Source: an uncultured Gemmatimonadaceae bacterium (GTDB lineage Bacteria > Gemmatimonadota > Gemmatimonadetes > Gemmatimonadales > Gemmatimonadaceae). Taken from it: a DNA stretch of 64,000 nt. Position 1 is the first letter of the stretch. Every line of letters begins with the position of its first letter. The stretch covers positions 1,056,001 through 1,120,000 of the forward strand of contig CAWFQK010000004.1 in NCBI GenBank assembly GCA_963817955.1, given 5' to 3'. The notes under the pieces were generated by a model that saw only the letters and a program-made list of their open reading frames with translations, was not told the DNA's origin and did no database searches. The translations under genes and the position numbers were made by a program. Shown in pieces: positions 14,465 through 64,000 of this stretch.

Positions 14465-14597
14465 GCAGGCTCTCGAAAAGGTGTGTCCGAGAGGAGCTCC
14501 CGGGGGTTGTGAAGCGGCCATGTGCGTGACTGCCGGGGCGGCGGTCGCGTAACGACGTCAGCACTGGTCATCCAGATTGCCGAGCGGGTTTGAGATA

Positions 14598-14643
14598 CGT
14601 GTCTCGTGTCTCAATCCCGTGTCCCGTGTCCCACCTCGTGTCC
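14598..14643 (-). repeat. Heptamer tract (GRGACAC)n over the ccdC-like stop
   Basis: cgtgtct/cgtgtcc units on + strand; encodes the GHGTRD tail. Confidence 0.75.
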
Positions 14644-15099
14644 AACCACCCTCCGGTACTCGAACAGCATCCCCACGCGCCACCGCAGAATCATCCCGAA
14701 CGCGAGCACGAAGAAGATCGCCCCCGTCTGCAGCGGCGAGATGAATTGGTCGATGTAGCTGCGCGCCGCAAATCTGACGGCGACGAGTACGAGCAGAATC
14801 GCCATGAAGGCCGGCGAGCGGTGCATCACCACGCGCTCGCCGTCGTGCTCGAGACGCGACGTTTTGGCGAGGGGAATGGCCAACACCCCGGCTCCGACCA
14901 GGAAAGCCGCCGTGGCCCACATCCACGGCACGCGCATGAGCGGTGACACGAACATCGCGAATCCAGTGCTCATGCCAAGCGGCGGCAGCACGATGCCGCG
15001 GACCGTCACTGGACGCCGCGTCTCGTGCACCCGCCACACTATGATTCCGCCGGCGCCTACGAGAGAGGCCGCCGAGCCGAAAATGGTTTGCAGCTGCAT
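14611..15099 (-). CDS. ccdC: CcdC/DUF1453 family membrane protein
   Basis: RPVT..IVLPPLGMSTGF, FFVLAFGMI.W motifs; several TM helices. Confidence 0.8.
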   Translation of the reverse strand: MQLQTIFGSAASLVGAGGIIVWRVHETRRPVTVRGIVLPPLGMSTGFAMFVSPLMRVPWMWATAAFLVGAGVLAIPLAKTSRLEHDGERVVMHRSPAFMAILLVLVAVRFAARSYIDQFISPLQTGAIFFVLAFGMILRWRVGMLFEYRRVVGHEVGHGTRD

Positions 15100-19160: not shown

Positions 19161-19427
19161 GGCGTACTCCTAAAACGTTTTGGTTGTTTGGGCCGCTCAT
19201 CCCGCTCGCTGTCGAGCGCGGTGCTGGAATGAGAGCGCCGAATCTTTCCCGGACTCGATGAGACATCGAGCATACTGCGGGACACTCATGGCATACCCAC
19301 GTCGCGGCGCGAAGTGCCAATGCAGGCGCGCGGGGACGGCTGCTCGTAGAGCTCGCTGAGCGCGGCGTGTTCCTACCAGGGCGTCGACCCCGTCTATCGG
19401 CCCACCGGCGCAGCGATCGTGAGGCGC

Positions 19428-19599
19428 GGATTGGACTCCGCGTCGTTGACCGGCTGGATGTCGCTGGCTGCTCCGTAGCGGTCGGCCCACCGGTCGGCGA
19501 GTTTCGAGTTGCCAGTTGTGAGTTATGCGTGGTGCGTTCTTACAACTCACAACTCACGACTCACAACTCACAACTGGCCACCCGAACCTCGCCGACCGG
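19428..19599 (+). repeat. Dispersed intergenic element, copy 1, followed by an inverted partial copy
   Basis: Core 19450-19509 identical to 56740-56799 and 63876-63935; arms 19490-19524 and 19565-19599 form a 35-bp inverted repeat with 3 mismatches. Confidence 0.92.
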
Positions 19600-19643
19600 C
19601 GCAAGAAATCGCACCCGCTCGACAGCCTCGGCCGTGTCGCCGT

Positions 19644-20888
19644 TCAAACCGCCGCCCCCTCCCCCGCCGCGCGTCCGGTCGCCCAGGCCCAAGAGAAGTT
19701 GTATCCGCCCACCGGTCCAAACGCGTCGAGTACCTCGCCACAGATATAGAGCCCCGGATGCCGCCGACTCTCCATCGTGCGTGGATCCACTTCGGCCAGA
19801 CTGAGCCCGCCGCCGGTCACCTCCGCCTTGCGGTACCCCTCGTCGGCCGTCCAGGGTAGCGGACCGGCAACCAACATTTCAATGAGCCGCATGCGTTCGT
19901 CGCGGCGGAGCTCGGCGAGCACTCGCGCCGGATCGATGCGCGCCAACGTCAACAGCACGCCAACCAGACGATCCGGCAACACGGCGCGCAGAACACCCGC
20001 CACCGCGCGGTTTCCCTGCGGGCGTAACGCCTGCTCCCACTCGGCAGCACCACGCTCCGTCCATTGCACTGTCAAACGCGCCTGCGCGCCGGATTCCAAT
20101 CGTGAGCGCACCAGCACATGCGACACGTCGAGCACCGCCGGTCCGCTGTAGCCCTGATGCGTGAACAGAAAGCCGCCGGTGGCCGTGGCGCTGCGTCCCG
20201 CCGCCGCATCGCGCGCCGAGAGCGTGACGCGCAACGATACGCCGCTGAGCTCAGCGAACGGCGAGCCCGCGGCGGTGAGCGGCGTGAGCGCCGGATAGAC
20301 CGGATGCATCACATGGCCGAGCTTCGCCAACTCGCGTACTCCAAGGCCGTCGCTGCCGGTGTTGGGCACCGAGAGCCCGCCGGTCGCGACGATGAGCGCG
20401 TCGGCGTCCACCGGCGGTGCGTCGGCGCATTCGACGCGCCACCCGCCGTTGAACGGTGCAAATCCGGTGACGGTCGTGTTCATGCGTAGCGTCGCCCCGG
20501 CACGTCTGGCGTGCGAGAGCAGACCGTCGCGCACGTCGCGCGCCTTGTTCGACAACGGGAAGAGTTTCGCCGATTCCGGCTCCTCGGCGAGCGGCAGTCG
20601 CAGCTCGTTCTCGAAGAACGCGATCTGCTCTGCGAGTGGCCATGAGCGGAGAATCTTACGCAGCAACTTTGGCGACGAGTCGGTGACGTAGCGCGATTCA
20701 TCGACGTGCATTGGCAGCACGTTGCACCGCCCCCCACCGCTGATGAGAATCTTCCGTCCGCCGTCGTGGGTTCGCTCGAGGAGCGTCGTCTGGGCGCCGG
20801 CGGTGGCGGCAAAGATCGCGGCCATCGACCCGGCCGCGCCCGCGCCGAGAACGACGACGCGCCTGGGCGACTGCGGTGGAGGCGGCAT
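19644..20888 (-). CDS. HI0933/YhiN/BaiN family flavoprotein
   Basis: GAGAAG, KILISGGGRCN, ATGGLS, LFTHQGYSGP, VTGGG, GEVLD...GGYNF. Confidence 0.92.
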   Translation of the reverse strand: MPPPPQSPRRVVVLGAGAAGSMAAIFAATAGAQTTLLERTHDGGRKILISGGGRCNVLPMHVDESRYVTDSSPKLLRKILRSWPLAEQIAFFENELRLPLAEEPESAKLFPLSNKARDVRDGLLSHARRAGATLRMNTTVTGFAPFNGGWRVECADAPPVDADALIVATGGLSVPNTGSDGLGVRELAKLGHVMHPVYPALTPLTAAGSPFAELSGVSLRVTLSARDAAAGRSATATGGFLFTHQGYSGPAVLDVSHVLVRSRLESGAQARLTVQWTERGAAEWEQALRPQGNRAVAGVLRAVLPDRLVGVLLTLARIDPARVLAELRRDERMRLIEMLVAGPLPWTADEGYRKAEVTGGGLSLAEVDPRTMESRRHPGLYICGEVLDAFGPVGGYNFSWAWATGRAAGEGAAV

Positions 20889-27486: not shown

Positions 27487-27630
27487 GGATTGGGCTCCGG
27501 GCCGTGGACCGGTCGGATGCCGCTGGCTGCTCCGTAGCGGTCGGCCCGCCAGTCGGCGAGGTTCGAGTGTCCAGTTGTGAGTTGTGCGTTGCGAGTGTCC
27601 CGTGTCCCGTGTCCCCCGCCCGTGTCCCGT
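27487..27630 (+). repeat. Dispersed element copy 2 (diverged) with (GTGTCCC)n tail
   Basis: ggattgggctccg...gctggctgctccgtagcggtcggccc...ccagttgtgagtt aligns with copy 1. Confidence 0.9.
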
Positions 27631-28205: not shown

Positions 28206-28335
28206 GGGACACGGGACACGAGACACGGGACACGGGACACGAGACACTCACGACTCACAACTGAAAACTCGAACCTCGCCGCCCGCTACGGAGCAGCCAG
28301 CGACATCCAGCCGGCCAAAACACGGAGTCCAATCC
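28206..28335 (-). repeat. Dispersed element copy 3 (inverted, internal deletion) with (GRGACAC)x6 tract
   Basis: Reverse complement reads ggattggactccg...ccggctggatgtcgctggctgctccgtagcgg-gcggcgaggttcgagttttcagttgtgag; six heptamers at 28206-28247. Confidence 0.9.
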
Positions 28336-32143: not shown

Positions 32144-32175
32144 GTCCCGTGTCCCGTGTCCCCCGCGCGTGTCCC
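32144..32175 (-). repeat. Heptamer tract abutting the kinase stop codon
   Basis: gtcccgtgtcccgtgtcccccgcgcgtgtccc, nearly identical to the tail of element copy 2. Confidence 0.75.
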
Positions 32176-34778
32176 TATCGCCCAGATTGCATGAGTTGCA
32201 GACCCGCCCGTGCGAACGGCGCGTCCTCGGCCTCGACCGTACCCGCGTCGGCGGCTGGTACCGGCAGCAGGATACGGAACGTGGTGCCAAGGCCCACCGT
32301 GCTCTCGACGCTGATCGCGCCGTTCAGCTGGCTCACGATGCCGTGCACCGTCGAGAGGCCGAGTCCCGTCCCGACGCCCACTGCCTTCGTCGTGAAGAAT
32401 GGCTCGAAGATCTTCGGCAGGATTTCCGGCGGAATGCCTTCGCCTTCGTCTGACACCGCAACCTCGACGTACCGCCCCGCCGGCACGATAGCATTTCCGG
32501 TAGCGCTCAGCTCGGACAATACGCGCTCCCCGACGACGAGCTTCAGATCACCGCCCTTTGGCATGGCGTCACGCGCGTTGACCGCGAGGTTCACGATGAC
32601 CTGGTGGAGCTGTCCCTCGTCGGCGAGCACCGTCGGCAGGTTGGCACCGCAGGCCACCACGATGCGCACGTGCTCACCAACCATGGGCCGCAGCATGCGT
32701 GCAAGATCCCGCACGACGGCTCCCACGTCGACAGGCTGCAATCGAATCACCTGACGACGGCCGAAGGCCAGCAACTGCCGCGTCAGATTCGCGGCGCGTG
32801 AGGCAGCGTTGAGGATCTCGGTGGTAAAGCCCCGGAGCTCTTCGTCGTCGGGCGGCAAGCGCTTCATGAGGAATCCGCCGTACCCGATGACCGCCGTCAG
32901 CACATTATTGAAATCGTGGGCGATGCCGCCGGCAAGTTGGCCGACCGCTTCCATTTTTTGCGCGTGGCGCAATTGCGCGGTGAGCTCGCGCACGTCTGTC
33001 ACGTCGGTCAACACTTCGAACGCGCCATCCTCGGTGCCGTGATCGAGCGGCACATAGCTCGCAACAACCGTTCGTGCGCGTCCGGCGGAATCATGGAGTG
33101 TGTTCTCGCGTGGAGCCAGATCGCCGTCTCGCGCTCGCCGCAGCGCATCAGTGGCCACCAAGGCCGCGCTGGATCCGATGACGTCCACCATCAGGCGCCC
33201 AACGATCTCGCGCTCTCCCTTGCCAAGAAATTCGCGGTACGCGCGATTGACGAATGCGTAGCGGCCGTGCGCATCGAGTTGACTGACGAGTACGGGCATG
33301 CGCTCCAGCAACCGACGGTTTCGAATGCCCTCGTCGTGGAACTCTCGTTGCGCATTGATCTGCTCGGTGCGGTCCAGCATGAGCGCCACGACACCTTCCA
33401 CGTCGCCGCGCTCGTCGCGTAGCGGGACCGCCGAGAGCTCGATTTCCCGCAACTCGCGATCCTTGCGCATGCAATGAATGAGCAATCCATTCGTTGACGT
33501 ATCGGACCCTGCAATGATCGCGTCAAGGATCCGCCGAGTTTCCGGCACGAGCGCGCCCGATTTGCCAGTCACCGCGCCGCCGATCACCTCCGAGGCGCTC
33601 CAACCGAATATGGTTTCAGCCGCCGGGTTCCACGTCTGTACGCGCCGGTTCCGATCCAGCGTCACGATGCCGATGGGCGCATCCCGAATGATTGCCGAGA
33701 GGAGCTGGGACGTCCGACGCACCTCTTCATAGGCACGCATCTGCGGTGTGAGGTCGAGCACGGACAGGATGATCCGCTGCCGCTCCGCGCCCACACGGGG
33801 CACGGCAGAGGCGGTGAGAAGACCCCAGACGGTCTCACCATCCTTCCGAATGAAACGCGTCGTCAGTGTGTACTTGCCGATCGCCCCCGCCCGCAGTTCG
33901 TCGAGGTGTGCGCGTTGCGCAGCGATGTCGTCCCGGTGGGTGAACTCCGCAAACGTCGACTGCTCGAGCTCGGCCCGTGTGTAGCCCAGAAAATCGCACA
34001 GCCGCTCGTTCACCCACAGCCATTCGCCGGCGTCCGTCGCATGCGCCAGCCCGATTCCCGCATTCTCGAATGTCACGCGATAGCGTTGTTCCCGCTCCAG
34101 CACCTGCCGCTCGGCTTTCTTCCGGCGGCGAAGCTCCCAGGCGATGAGTACGCCCACCACGCCAGCAATGAGGATGGCCAGCACCACTGCGACGATGGTC
34201 AACTCCAGCGTTTGCATGAACGCTTGGCGGCGACGCGTCGCTTGGTCCGCCATGACCCGGTGCCAGCTGATCGCGACAGCTCGTCTGAGATCGTCGAACC
34301 GCTCGTGCTGCTGTACCTCAGCCGGCAGGGCCATCCTGGCGAGCGCGGAATCGGTGTGGCCCGCTTGAACGAGTTCCCGGCCTCGACGAATCGTGAAGAA
34401 CCTCGCGCGCACGAGGGCGTCCATTCCATCGAGCATTGCGTGCTCGGCTGGCGCGCTCGCCGTCAACTGTCGCGCATCACGGAGGAATTCGTAGGCCTGA
34501 CGCTCATTTGCCGCGATCGCGACCTGCGCCGTGCTGTCATTGCGTCCACTCGGCAACAAGAGGGTCATTTCGGCGCGCAAGACAGACTCGGAGAGCCATT
34601 CGAGATCGGCCAATGCCGCCTGCATCCGATCCTGCGATTCGAGAATCGCCAGGAGTGAGCGAAGCCGATCAGTCGCCAGGATGGCGCTTCCCAGCGATAC
34701 GACAAACCCTGCCGCCGCGACGAGTATCAGAACGACGTGGACTAGTCGGCTGCGCGAGGGTTCAAATCGGCGCGGCAT
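32175..34778 (-). CDS. Membrane PAS sensor histidine kinase (CHASE3-like sensor, 3 PAS, CckA-type kinase, no receiver)
   Basis: Two TMs; [38 protein letters not shown]. Confidence 0.92.
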
Positions 34779-47010: not shown

Positions 47011-50000
47011 TTACATGGACGATCCAGCTGCCCTCCGCCCCGCTCGCGGTTCTCCAAGCCACCGTGCAACGACCCCGAGCAACTGGCGGGCGACAAACGG
47101 CTTATCCAGGAATTCTACGTTATTCCAATCCCGCCTATCGGCGCTCAATGCGTCGTGACTGTTGGACGTAGTGAGTACCACCGGAATCTCGAGTTCGACG
47201 CTGTCGAGCCAGGCAAGTAGCGCTTTCCCGCCAAGGCGCGGCATCGTCACGTCGCTGATGATGAGATCCACGGTGTCCGCGGCGCTGCCGATTAGGTCTC
47301 GGACCTCGTCGCCCGTGGCGCACGCGCACACATCATATCCGTTATCCCGGAGAATGCGCTCCATGATGCCGCGCAGCATGGGATTCTGCTCGGCAACAAC
47401 AATTCGCAAACGTGTACTCTCGCCAGCAAGAGACGCGGGCGACGACAGTGCTGCCTCGGCGTCGTCCGCCGGCGCGGCAACTGGCGCGGCCACCGGCGCT
47501 GCACCAAGAATGGGCAATAGAATGCGAAACGTCGTTCCGCGGCCGACGGTACTCTCGACGTCGATGACCCCATTCAGCTGGCTGACGATGCCGTGAACCG
47601 TGGACAGGCCCAGCCCCGTGCCCTCCCCCTTTCCCTTGGTCGTGAAAAAGGGCTCGTAGATCTTGCTCAGGATTTCTGGTGGTATGCCTGCACCCTCGTC
47701 GGCCACTTCCAACTCGATGAACTTTCCGGCTTCCACGAACATTCCACCCACGCGAGTCCGTTCGACAAGCTCGCGCTCGCGCACAGTGACTCGCAGTTCG
47801 CCGCCGTTCGGCATCGCGTCGCGCGCGTTGACCGCGAGATTGACCACCACTTGCTGCAGCTGCCCTTCGTCGGCCAGCACCATCGGGTGCTCCACTGCAC
47901 ATGCAACCGTGATACGAACACGCTCCCCGACGATCGGCTGGAGCATGCGCTGTAAGTCCCGCACGACGAACCCGACGTCAATCGGCTGGAGGTGGAACAC
48001 CTGCCGCCGACCGAACGCCAGCAACTGGCGCGTCAACTTGGCGGCGCGGTCGGCGGTAGCGAGGATCTCCGCGGTGAAGCTCTTGAGCTGCGAATCGTTG
48101 GCTGAAAGGCCATCCATCACGAAGCGACCGTACCCCATCACCGCGGTCAGCATGTTGTTGAAGTCGTGCGCAATGCCGCCGGCAAGTTGCCCAATGGCCT
48201 CCATCTTCAATGCATGGCGCAGCTGTGCGGTGAGCTCACGCACATCGGTGACGTCGGTCGTTACTTCGAACGTACTCTGTCCGTCCTCCGTCTCGAGCGG
48301 AAAATAGCTTGCGACCACGGTGCGCGTACGCCCGTGAGAATCCACAAGCGAATTCTCGCACGCTGCCAGATCGCCATTGCGGGCGCGTTGAAGCCCCTCG
48401 AGCGCAACGCCCGCGGAGCCAATCCCAATGACATCGACCAGCGGACGGCCGAGGATTTCGACGTCCATCTTGCCGAGGAACTCGCGATAGGCGCGATTCA
48501 CAAAGACGTACCGCCCGTCTGCATCGAGCTGGCCTACGAGAACCGGCATTCCCTCGAGGAGCGTGCGATTCCGCATCGCCTCGGCGTGGAAGTGGCGTTC
48601 CGCATTCACCTCCTCTGTCCGATCCAGCAGGAGCGCGACGACGCCATCCACGACGCCGTGCTCGTCACGGAGCGGAACAGCCGACAGCTCGATCTCGCGC
48701 ACCTGACCATCCTTACGCGGACGCTGTCCGCGCAACCGGCTCACCGACGTGCCCGTCGCGGTGAGCGTATCGATCCCCCGCCGAATCTTGTCCCCGACGT
48801 CGCCGTCCCACGGCAGCGCGCCATCGACCAGCTCACCCTCCTGCCAGCCAAAGATCTCTTCAGCCGCCGGGTTCCATGTCTGGACCCGGTGCGCTCGATC
48901 GAGCGTGACTATGGCCACCGGCGCATCACGAATGATCGCCGAGAGAAGTTGCGATGTCCGGCGCACTTCCTCGTACGCTCGCATCTGCGTCGTCAGATCG
49001 AGAACGGAGTAGATGATCCGTCGCGCCTTGATTCCCGACCGCTGTGCCGCGGACACTGTGAGGACGGCCCACACCACCCCACCATCCTTGCGAATGTATC
49101 GCTTGGTGATCGAGTATCGCCGAATCACGCCCGAGCACAGTTGCTTGATCCGGTCGGCGTCATCCTCGATGTCGTCCGGATGTGTGAAGTCACGAAAGTT
49201 GAGCCGCTGCAGTTCGGCGCGTGTGTAGCCGAGGAACTCGCAGAGCTGCTCGTTCACCCAGAGCCATTCCCCGCTCTCGGTTCCGTGGGCCAGCCCAATT
49301 CCGACGTTCTCGAATGTCACCCGGTAGCGTTCTTCGCGCTCAGAGACCTCTTCTTCCGCGAGCCGTCGCCGACGAAGCTCCCACGTCAGGAGAGCGATGA
49401 CGACACCGCCAATGAGCACCGTCAGGGCGATTGCCGCGATGCTGAGCGCCAGTGTTTCCAGAAAGCGCTGGCGACCACGGTCAGCGTTGATGTCAAGGAC
49501 GGCAAGTCCCCGGTCCGCCACGGCTTGCTTCAGATCGTCGAATGTGTCTCGTTGTGCCGTCACCAGCGGCCGCATCAGACGTGCGCGCCCGACATCGGCG
49601 TGCCCGGTGCCGATAAGTTCGCGTGCCTCCTGGATCGCGTCGAACCGTGCGTGGACCAGGCGCTCAATGGAATCGAGCACCGGCCCTTCCGACGCCAGCG
49701 TACCGGTCATTCGCCTGGCTTCGCGCAAATTCGCATAAGCCCGGCTCTCGTCGGCGGCAATCGTCCCCGCCGCCACCGTATCAGCCTGTCGGTCACCCGG
49801 CAGCAGCACGGCCATCTCGGCCCGCATGACCGTGTGGGAGAGACTTTCCAACTGCGCCAGCGCGGTCTGCAATTCCGCTCGCAGTTCGACGATGGCAAGA
49901 AAGGAGCGCAGTCGCTGCGTCGCCACGATCGCGCTCGCAAGCGTGAGGACGAAGCCGGCAGCCGCAATGACGACCAGGGCGAAATGTACGCGCCGGGCGC

Positions 50001-56312: not shown

Positions 56313-56738
56313 ATGCGTCCATCGATTGTATCTGAAGGACAGAAGGACGCCACCGCCGAACGGCTCGTGGAGATACTCTGCGAGATACCGCTGGCGACGT
56401 GGCGCTCCACCGCACTCGCGGCAGCCTTCGCCCCGGGCGGCCGCGCCGCGGCCGAAGCGTTGACCGCAGCAATGCCATCGGTCAATCCAGTCCATGCGTG
56501 GATGGTGCTCGACGATCTCGAGACGGCTCTCTTTCGGCTCACAGCCGTCAACGCGCGCGACATCGTTCCCAGTGCAAAGGAATACGAGTTGATTCGCATC
56601 GCTACGCGCCGTGCGGTGCAGGCCTTACTGTGCCGAGACTACCTGGCGCCTGAGCATGTCCATGCCCTCGCCGGGCCCTTTCTGTCCATGACACTCGATA
56701 GTGCCTGTCCTCCTGAGCGGAGCGAAGGATTTCTGTGA
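56313..56738 (+). CDS. Hypothetical protein; C-terminus encoded by a REP-like motif
   Basis: GAGG RBS, 141 aa; ends CPPERSEGFL. Confidence 0.55.
   Translation: MRPSIVSEGQKDATAERLVEILCEIPLATWRSTALAAAFAPGGRAAAEALTAAMPSVNPVHAWMVLDDLETALFRLTAVNARDIVPSAKEYELIRIATRRAVQALLCRDYLAPEHVHALAGPFLSMTLDSACPPERSEGFL
56706..56730 (+). repeat. REP-like motif TGTCCTCCTGAGCGGAGCGAAGGAT
   Basis: Resembles the GTCATCCTGAGCG..GCGAAGGA short repeat (recognised from memory); directly precedes element copy 4. Confidence 0.55.
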
Positions 56739-56739
56739 G

Positions 56740-56847
56740 CCGGCTGGATGTCGCTGGCTGCTCCGTAGCGGTCGGCCCACCGGTCGGCGAGTTTCGAGTG
56801 TCCAGTTGTGAGTTGTGCGTTGTGAGTTTCTCGTGTCCCGTGTCTCG
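56740..56847 (+). repeat. Dispersed element copy 4 with heptamer tail
   Basis: 60-nt core identical to copies 1 and 5; tail ttgtgagtttctcgtgtcccgtgtctcg. Confidence 0.92.
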
Positions 56848-56852
56848 TCAGG

Positions 56853-63787: not shown

Positions 63788-63821
63788 GGGACACGGGACA
63801 CGGGACACGGGACACGGGACA
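63788..63821 (+). repeat. Heptamer tract (GGGACAC)x4+
   Basis: Perfect tandem 7-mers after the DUF4337 stop. Confidence 0.85.
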
Positions 63822-63854
63822 ACGGCTGACTGCGTGCTAACTGCGCTAACTGCG

Positions 63855-64000
63855 GGCTTGGGCTCCGGGTGTTGACCGGCTGGATGTCGCTGGCTGCTCC
63901 GTAGCGGTCGGCCCACCGGTCGGCGAGTTTCGAGTTGCCAGTTGTGAGTTATGCGTTATGCGTTTTTAGCAACCCACAACTCACGACTCACAACTGGACA
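63855..64000 (+). repeat. Dispersed element copy 5 with the start of an inverted arm (runs off window)
   Basis: 63871-63956 identical to 19445-19530; ends ...ctcacaactggaca, the beginning of the inverted arm. Confidence 0.92.

Follow-up and report, generated by a model that had tools for sequence, protein, structure and literature searches.

Results

Five copies of a modular repeat in the window

The window analysed here is a 64-kb stretch (C4:1056001–1120000) of a Gemmatimonadaceae genome of 4.53 Mb (nine contigs, 64% G+C, 94% complete); positions inside it are counted from its first letter and positions elsewhere are given with the contig (C1, C2 and so on). A repeat occurs in it five times, at 19428, 27487, 28335 (reverse), 56740 and 63855, all of them positions listed in a first-pass annotation of the same sequence. 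As stated there, all five are intergenic. The called genes on either side have ordinary enzymes as products; they code for a DegP-like protease, an HI0933-like flavoprotein, a DUF2147 protein, a PEMT/ICMT methyltransferase, an M1 peptidase and a DUF4337 protein. The gene following copy 2 was called with 57 nt of overlap with the tail of that copy, and it probably starts further downstream. The reported identities were reproduced: an exact 60-nt string, the longest shared by copies 1 and 4, is also present in copy 5, and the longest exact string common to copies 1 and 5 measures 86 nt.

Copy 1 (+ strand) consists of a leader (L, 19428–19449), which is the least conserved module, a core (K, 19450–19489) that matches the K module at 100% and is predicted to fold into a hairpin with three G-U pairs on the + strand, and a tail (T, 19490–19538) that module and inverted-repeat matches identify as a frozen heptamer array forming the left arm of a long hairpin. 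The loop of this hairpin (19539–19550), whose equivalent place is occupied by a four-helix-bundle gene in two other loci, is followed by the right arm, an inverted tail (T′, 19551–19599, − strand). The inverted arms of copy 1 had been described as 35 bp long; they are present, with a size of 49 nt and a complementarity of 86%. Upstream, 19398–19427 (+ strand) reads as what is left of the end of a core copy ahead of it, together with the linker joining tandem heads; the same linker also separates the heads of the tandems at C1:455636 and C5:32811. Downstream (19600–19645, boundary approximate), a third kind of outer head stands instead of the second head, H2; by eye, it resembles the flanks at C2:239564 and C2:997141.

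The other copies were delimited by module matches. Copy 2 (27487–27630, + strand) comprises L, K (27515–27547), T (27552–27596) and a (GTGTCCC)n array (27595–27630), and is preceded by a diverged 3′ half of H2. Copy 3 (28206–28335, − strand) comprises L (28335–28315), K (28314–28278), a shortened T and an array (28247–28206) that ends 28 nt past the stop of the upstream gene; about 12 nt are missing from the end of its core. Copy 4 (56704–56848, + strand) is squeezed between convergent genes and lacks the leader, as had been observed, a different module of the M1 type (56704–56738) standing in its place before K (56740–56779), T (56780–56827) and a short array. Copy 5 (63855–64000, + strand) is a closed hairpin with L, K (63876–63915), T (63916–63957), a loop and T′ from 63975, collinear with a gene-carrying copy described below; it runs past the window end, with T′ and H2′ at 63975–64066 in window numbering, and just upstream of it repeat and module matches mark an inverted (GGGACAC)5 array with 9-nt repeats (63788–63854). 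The leader match is exact at 19428, 27487 and 28335 (−) and has one mismatch at 63855. The decay of the tail into 7-nt units was likewise seen, as period-7 rows at 19497–19524, 27573–27596, 56804–56828 and 63923–63950. Direct-repeat and module matches also revealed two stand-alone heptamer arrays on the + strand (14594–14647 and 32144–32175), with the same type of unit as the arrays in the element.

An assembly artefact is unlikely to account for the copies, because they differ in sequence and flanks and because the core stands in several flank contexts on short contigs of two soil sequencing runs from one study, possibly of the source sample; among the contigs of three sequencing runs, none bridged the element. 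The window also holds two pairs of direct repeats (32522–32821 with 47772–48071, and 33923–34097 with 49167–49341; 300 and 175 nt long, 71–77% identical and about 15.25 kb apart), which suggest a paralogous gene pair or an old segmental duplication.

Modules and their arrangement

A set of modules was derived from an alignment of 107 copies, whose consensus serves as reference for the identities. The leader L is variable (21 nt, 77%), the core K (41 nt) is 94.6% identical to its consensus and the tail T (48 nt) 88%; the much stronger conservation of K compared with L and T is a hint of constraint as opposed to neutral decay. The units of T, a degenerate heptamer array, end in AGT or CGT and keep the register of the live (GTGTCYC)n arrays downstream of it. 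Genome-wide, blastn-short found 108 copies of K, 136 of T, 39 of H2 and 106 of M1, and the module scan shows that these follow a fixed grammar: K is followed by T in 87 adjacent pairs, T by an array in 55 (the reverse order occurring once), H2 by T in 37, T by inverted T′ in 22 and M1 by K in 10. The leader-core-tail unit proposed for the window copies is no more than a single arm of a more extensive mosaic. Among the 108 K copies there are closed hairpins of the form L–K–T–loop–T′–H2′ with loops of 6–12 nt (29 copies, including window copies 1 and 5), open composites of the form array′–T′–H2′–second heptamer array–Ma/M1–L–K–T–array (13 copies), single arms running into a live (GTGTCYC)n array (58 copies, including window copies 2, 3 and 4) and eight unclassed copies, so that the T arms are central in the first class, outermost in the second and single in the third. 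Tandem one-and-a-half units were seen at C2:812175–812469 and C4:1572982–1572672, and a diverged H2 half with a short linker precedes L in at least 10 copies.

A private tail variant characterizes the closed hairpins, being present in 19 of the 20 that could be typed (6 untyped) and in only 1 of 47 typed copies of other kinds (34 untyped), which indicates that the closed-hairpin form spread as a unit. Leader variants are common to closed hairpins and other copies. Together, private tails and common leaders show that many loci received whole multi-module units by block copying, and that modules were also reshuffled.

The M1 module, present in the window at 56704–56738, has a 25-mer core that is letter-perfect in 18 of 121 family genomes, and its distribution is patchy, with up to 119 copies in some family genomes and none in two other genus genomes sampled. 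Inverted pairs of M1 lie 50–70 nt apart in several genomes, and in this genome 10 pairs are 300–600 nt apart. A literature search with the exact string of the module returned no match.

Copy number and species distribution

When the 172-nt sequence of copy 1 was used as a blastn query, 278 alignments were obtained, among them 107 places with the core (108 by the module scan) on all nine contigs, 55 on the + and 52 on the − strand; 26 of the 107 cover the query from position 1 to at least 165. This number of core-bearing places excludes chance. The copies had been thought to be recently spreading, which agrees with the 95% identity of the core to its consensus; the 77% and 88% of leader and tail do not fit, nor does the finding that only 5 of the 107 places have a twin of at least 97% identity.

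Outside this genome, BLAST detected no core in 40 relatives, where only the heptamer part matched, in 4 genomes. The core 34-mer had no match in 185,579 species genomes; a looser core pattern hit two stretches in the same genomes and two in a metagenome collection, with no real copy among those inspected, since the two inspected stretches had only the 26-nt pattern in common and are chance matches in unrelated sequence. Plasmid and phage collections gave heptamer-only matches in three plasmids and none in phages. The array unit behaves similarly: (GTGTCYC)3 occurs 294 times in this genome, two times in one other genome of the genus and never in the remaining 29. Judged by these searches, core and array unit appear confined to one species among the 31 genus genomes. 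The best relatives' versions of the genes flanking copy 1 are 72–77% identical and lie on different contigs, not in synteny.

Copies are dense in one region, C1:396000–480000, where twelve K-bearing copies, mostly closed hairpins in one orientation, occur in 84 kb. Some of them bracket AAA-type ATPase genes, two of which are 96% identical paralogues, and the region looks like a variable island.

Copies that carry a four-helix-bundle gene

The window copies are themselves gene-less. A four-helix-bundle gene flanked by the element, which the first-pass annotation had named as a possible partner, was found in two loci when the genes between inverted module pairs were listed. At C4:1553034–1553744, L–K–T arms of 121 nt with 96% complementarity enclose a gene at C4:1553148–1553633 for a 161-aa protein of the PF05635 (23S_rRNA_IVP) family (86.9 bits, cut-off 33.8). 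At C1:471947–472787 the order is H2–T, seven 24-nt units, a PF05635 gene and T′–K′–L′, an asymmetry of K and H2 that the closed hairpins also show. With 94% identity between the two proteins, a single event may lie behind both copies. Of the five PF05635 genes in the genome, four have flanking inverted repeats: besides the two above, one lies about 1 kb before the window (C4:1054462–1055123) in 127-nt arms with 94% complementarity and GATCAGT/CATCAGT-type units, and a fourth (C4:1616850) stands between 110-nt arms made of 9–17-nt units; the fifth has no arms. The 130-nt flanks of the gene-carrying copies recur elsewhere in the genome, at 105–109 other places for the K–T type, at 20–21 for the type before the window and at 2 and 25 for the type at C4:1616850. 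Across the genus, 3–12 PF05635 genes were found in each of 31 genomes, and of 34 loci, 29 from 25 genus genomes had enough flanking sequence; inverted repeats of at least 25 nt within 450 nt flank 19 of these 29, compared with 1 of 150 control genes, which were random small genes of the present genome.

Four gene-less copies are collinear with the gene-carrying copy on C1 minus about 630 nt, in blocks of 86–94% identity with the same order and orientation. One empty copy aligns from 9 to 123 with positions 3–117 (93%) and from 124 to 256 with positions 747–879 (86%), and window copies 5 (92% and 88%) and 1 (90.5% and 94%) each align in two collinear blocks. We consider it probable that the repeat is the gene-less form of a hairpin cassette of the rRNA intervening-sequence (IVS) type, a selfish insertion that is tolerated mainly between convergent genes and behind genes.

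The relation could also be one of target choice instead of ancestry, the K–T/H2–T hairpins forming an independent MITE- or BIME-like family and the four-helix-bundle unit being a separate insert that prefers hairpin loops. The insert at C4:1553034 is bounded on both sides by GTTAAC and starts with a 24-nt unit that is doubled at the ends of an IS481-like element, which would also fit a gene landing in an existing hairpin loop, and the C1 copy has seven such units in tandem. The two GTTAAC hexamers are equally compatible with a deletion between short repeats. In agreement with a separate insert, the other armed PF05635 genes of the genome lie in arms of quite different sequence, and the gene-carrying copies have the single-arm tail variant and not that of the closed hairpins, from which it follows that the extant gene-carrying copies are not the direct parents of the closed hairpins. 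Against it, the gene-in-arms arrangement recurs in the 19 genus loci with many different arms, which is explained more simply if gene and arms travel together, and we regard a separate insert that prefers hairpin loops as rather unlikely.

The IS481-like element itself (encoding a 391-aa rve/LZ_Tnp_IS481 protein) was located at C4:905249–907057, C5:39393–41008 and C9:169557–171277. It lies inside the second heptamer array of composites, and in two loci or more its relative position there is identical; the 24-nt unit doubled at its ends also immediately precedes the two four-helix-bundle genes with K–T arms, in a single copy or in seven.

Placement among genes

Genes were called with a purpose-made caller based on codon usage, according to which 87% of the genome is coding. 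Convergent spacers hold 55 of the 107 copies but make up only 576 of all 3984 spacers (14.5%); a further 44 copies lie between co-directional genes, 25 with the tail and 19 with the head towards the 3′ end, and eight between divergent genes. Dispersed repeats account for 17.5% of intergenic bases and are found in 20% of convergent, 6% of co-directional and 8% of divergent spacers. The elements thus survive mainly between convergent genes. Repeat-bearing convergent spacers have a median length of 365 nt, of which a remainder of 34 nt is non-repeat, compared with a median of 38 nt where convergent spacers are free of repeats; the elements are hence additional DNA, about 330 nt of it, in spacers that are otherwise short and ordinary, and the process was insertion, not replacement.

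Heptamer arrays were found at 179 loci, of which 51 continue the tail and core and 116 have neither. At 115 of the 179 loci the outer end of the array faces the 3′ end of a gene, the G-rich strand being the sense strand, and in 72 of these 115 the distance from the outer end to the stop codon is between −30 and +15 nt, a regularity that holds for arrays and not for K. Such a placement could mean that the repeat acts in cis within 3′ untranslated regions and is under selection, with a hairpin and G-rich arrays that end or protect transcripts, a role also proposed for REP/BIME and for G-quadruplex heptamers, and with a copy number that reflects usefulness instead of selfish spread. The conservation of K and the long hairpin, which folds far better than shuffled sequences (z = −8.95 and −8.36), would agree with this, and GGGNATC repeats are reported with the same placement and with transcription (Rehm et al. 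2015, PMC4692102). However, closeness to stops needs no targeting, because the native spacer is so small, and only 116 of the 576 convergent spacers carry at least 40 nt of dispersed repeat. Moreover, neither a T-run terminator nor a sigma-70 promoter consensus was found inside copies 1–3, and both the core and the array unit appear limited to a single species among the 31 genus genomes. We hold a selected function of this kind to be improbable.

RNA families and mobilising genes

A repeated structured RNA had been proposed as one identity of the element, and this was not borne out. RNAalifold gave almost no consensus structure over the 107 copies, and on the consensus fold only 10 cells were compensatory while 449 of 3565 were broken. 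The K hairpin is more stable on the + strand (mean z = −2.0, compared with −0.4), which speaks for small structured RNA genes as a family, although G-U pairs alone are responsible for the difference; the lack of covariation, of a promoter consensus and of an Rfam family, as well as the occurrence of copies in both orientations relative to neighbouring genes, make RNA genes a very improbable identity. The Rfam search of the window had no match at the gathering threshold and returned only sub-threshold long hairpins resembling miRNA precursors at E ≤ 1 (copy 1). Two further candidates were dropped, a lipoprotein signal in one reading frame of the core (VAGCS) because no hydrophobic stretch precedes it, and an integron attC site because the copies are dispersed in both orientations.

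The view of the repeat as a dispersed, MITE-like intergenic family that has neither a transposase nor a named match was upheld, the Rfam, plasmid and phage searches having provided no name. A REPIN family mobilised by a RAYT (Y1 transposase), which high-copy extragenic hairpins, often in inverted pairs, and a GTAG tetranucleotide inside K might recall, is scarcely credible, since PF01797 had no match in this 94%-complete genome while 6 of 14 control genomes were positive, five M1-rich family genomes contained no Y1 transposase either and the copies show no replication-strand bias. An IS110 gene flanked by the element had also been envisaged; the genome has five IS110-type genes, none adjoining K or T. 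TnpB was not detected in the genome, and its one reverse transcriptase gene (C4:732178) does not adjoin any four-helix-bundle gene. The longer, gene-carrying partner encodes only the four-helix-bundle protein and no known transposase. Target-site duplications or sharp termini could not be defined, the outer ends being variable arrays or other modules.

Two other repeat families were encountered next to K–T copies. A 710-nt repeat is present in five copies (C2:333835–334544 and four other places, 87–95% identical), each between two outward-facing K–T heads; it showed no clear reading frame, three-base periodicity or Rfam match, sub-threshold miRNA-like hairpins apart. Repeats of 1.5–2 kb (C4:658650–660690, C4:1204241–1205995, C4:1406457–1408311 and about 14 more), whose right ends could be aligned at 17 places, contain internal 21/41/62-nt tandem repeats and had no Pfam or Rfam match; on account of a stretch of about 1 kb with steady three-base periodicity and a conserved end of low G+C, they are probably a family of repeat-protein genes. 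They often adjoin K–T copies, and immediately beyond the end of the window a 2-kb stretch of such repeats is enclosed by full elements of 256 nt in inverted orientation.

Discussion

Relation to known repeat families

Several known families share part of this design. BIMEs, the REP mosaics of enterobacteria, are built from few modules in alternating orientation and lie behind genes and between convergent genes. The present element is likewise a mosaic of modules in such places, with leader and tail variants shuffled; its modules are longer (40–50 nt) and include heptamer arrays, and no RAYT was found. Whereas a REP unit is a palindrome of 20–40 nt with hundreds of extragenic copies, the unit here measures 110–260 nt, is modular and has about 108 extragenic copies. 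The BOX elements of Streptococcus pneumoniae have a modular head, a variable number of repeated middle units and a tail, about a hundred copies and no known mobiliser. The head-repeats-tail design and the copy number are similar here, but the repeated unit is 7 nt and not tens of nucleotides long, and there is no sequence relation. Like MITEs, the gene-less copies are small, ORF-less, numerous and intergenic and, apart from an internal segment that they lack, collinear with a longer relative that carries a gene. They differ from MITEs in that no target-site duplication or sharp terminus was found, that the longer relative lacks a known transposase and that the inverted repeats of the closed hairpins are central, not terminal.

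The arrays resemble the GGGAATC repeats of Xanthomonas and the heptamers of Nostoc and the cyanobacterial STRRs, as these are described in PMC4692102: all are intergenic 7-nt units with the G-rich sense strand near the stop, occur in convergent inverted pairs and vary in unit number. The difference is that 51 of the 179 arrays continue the conserved tail and core, whereas Rehm et al. (2015, PMC4692102) present GGGNATC heptamers near stop codons and in convergent pairs without heads and connect them to no mobile elements. According to the same source, about 6% of Xanthomonas (Xcc) genes adjoin a GGGAATC array (242 of 4170; file 4), one array (repeat 15; row 27 of supplement file 2) lies over the XCC0516 start codon, and heptamer arrays behind bacterial genes are left without explanation. 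XCC0516 is the crystallised S23p protein (PMC4990558, PMC10053308), and PF05635 has been tied both to it and to Avd, the accessory protein of diversity-generating retroelements (DGR) (PMC10053308).

The closest likeness in content is to the intervening sequences of 23S rRNA genes. The IVS of Coxiella is called selfish in PMC4990558, has an inverted-repeat stem that is cut by RNase III and an S23p ORF, and carries tandem GACAGAT heptamers before this ORF whose number varies between strains. IVSs with S23p ORFs have been known in rRNA genes for decades; in the account given in that paper, neither the function of the protein nor the way of moving had been found, and an old idea that the ORF serves mobility is quoted and attributed to Ralph and McClelland 1993 (PMC4990558). 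As in the IVSs of Coxiella burnetii (helix 45), Leptospira, Brucella and the Xanthomonas type, the two gene-carrying copies consist of a PF05635 gene in long inverted repeats, with tandem heptamers of varying number beside the ORF. The present copies differ in that they lie between protein genes, that about 100 of them are gene-less and that the arms have unique, non-repeat heads (K and H2). Apart from the Coxiella IVS paper (PMC4990558), our search found no literature joining four-helix-bundle genes to MITE-like or heptamer repeat families.

A probable gene-less hairpin cassette

If the repeat is the gene-less form of an IVS-type cassette, its long inverted arms would consist of the frozen heptamer array T, closed off by short heads of unique sequence: K plus the leader L on one side, H2 or the third head on the other. 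The loop between the arms holds the four-helix-bundle gene in two loci and measures only 6–12 nt in 29. Gene-less forms would have arisen from gene-carrying ones by internal deletion, as in MITEs, and single arms would be broken or recombined halves. In read-through transcripts the arms may form a stem of the RNase III type, by analogy with the rRNA intervening sequences. It counts against this reading that a four-helix-bundle protein is not known to have catalytic activity.

A wider reading, which we put forward tentatively as a possibility, is that heptamer arrays behind stop codons, the 179 found here and perhaps the STRRs and the GGGAATC repeats of Xanthomonas elsewhere, might be worn single arms of four-helix-bundle cassettes of the IVS type, protein and arms being one selfish system that seeds arrays across phyla. 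Pointing in this direction, T shares the heptamer register of the live arrays and precedes them 55 times to 1, and array unit and heads are both confined to the species. The GGGAATC array over the start of XCC0516 and the heptamers ahead of the S23p ORF in the Coxiella IVS point the same way. The genome combines two gene-carrying cassettes, about 100 gene-less copies with unique heads and 179 arrays of one unit, all in one species, so that the relation between parent and derivative, the role of the protein and the origin of the arrays become directly testable.
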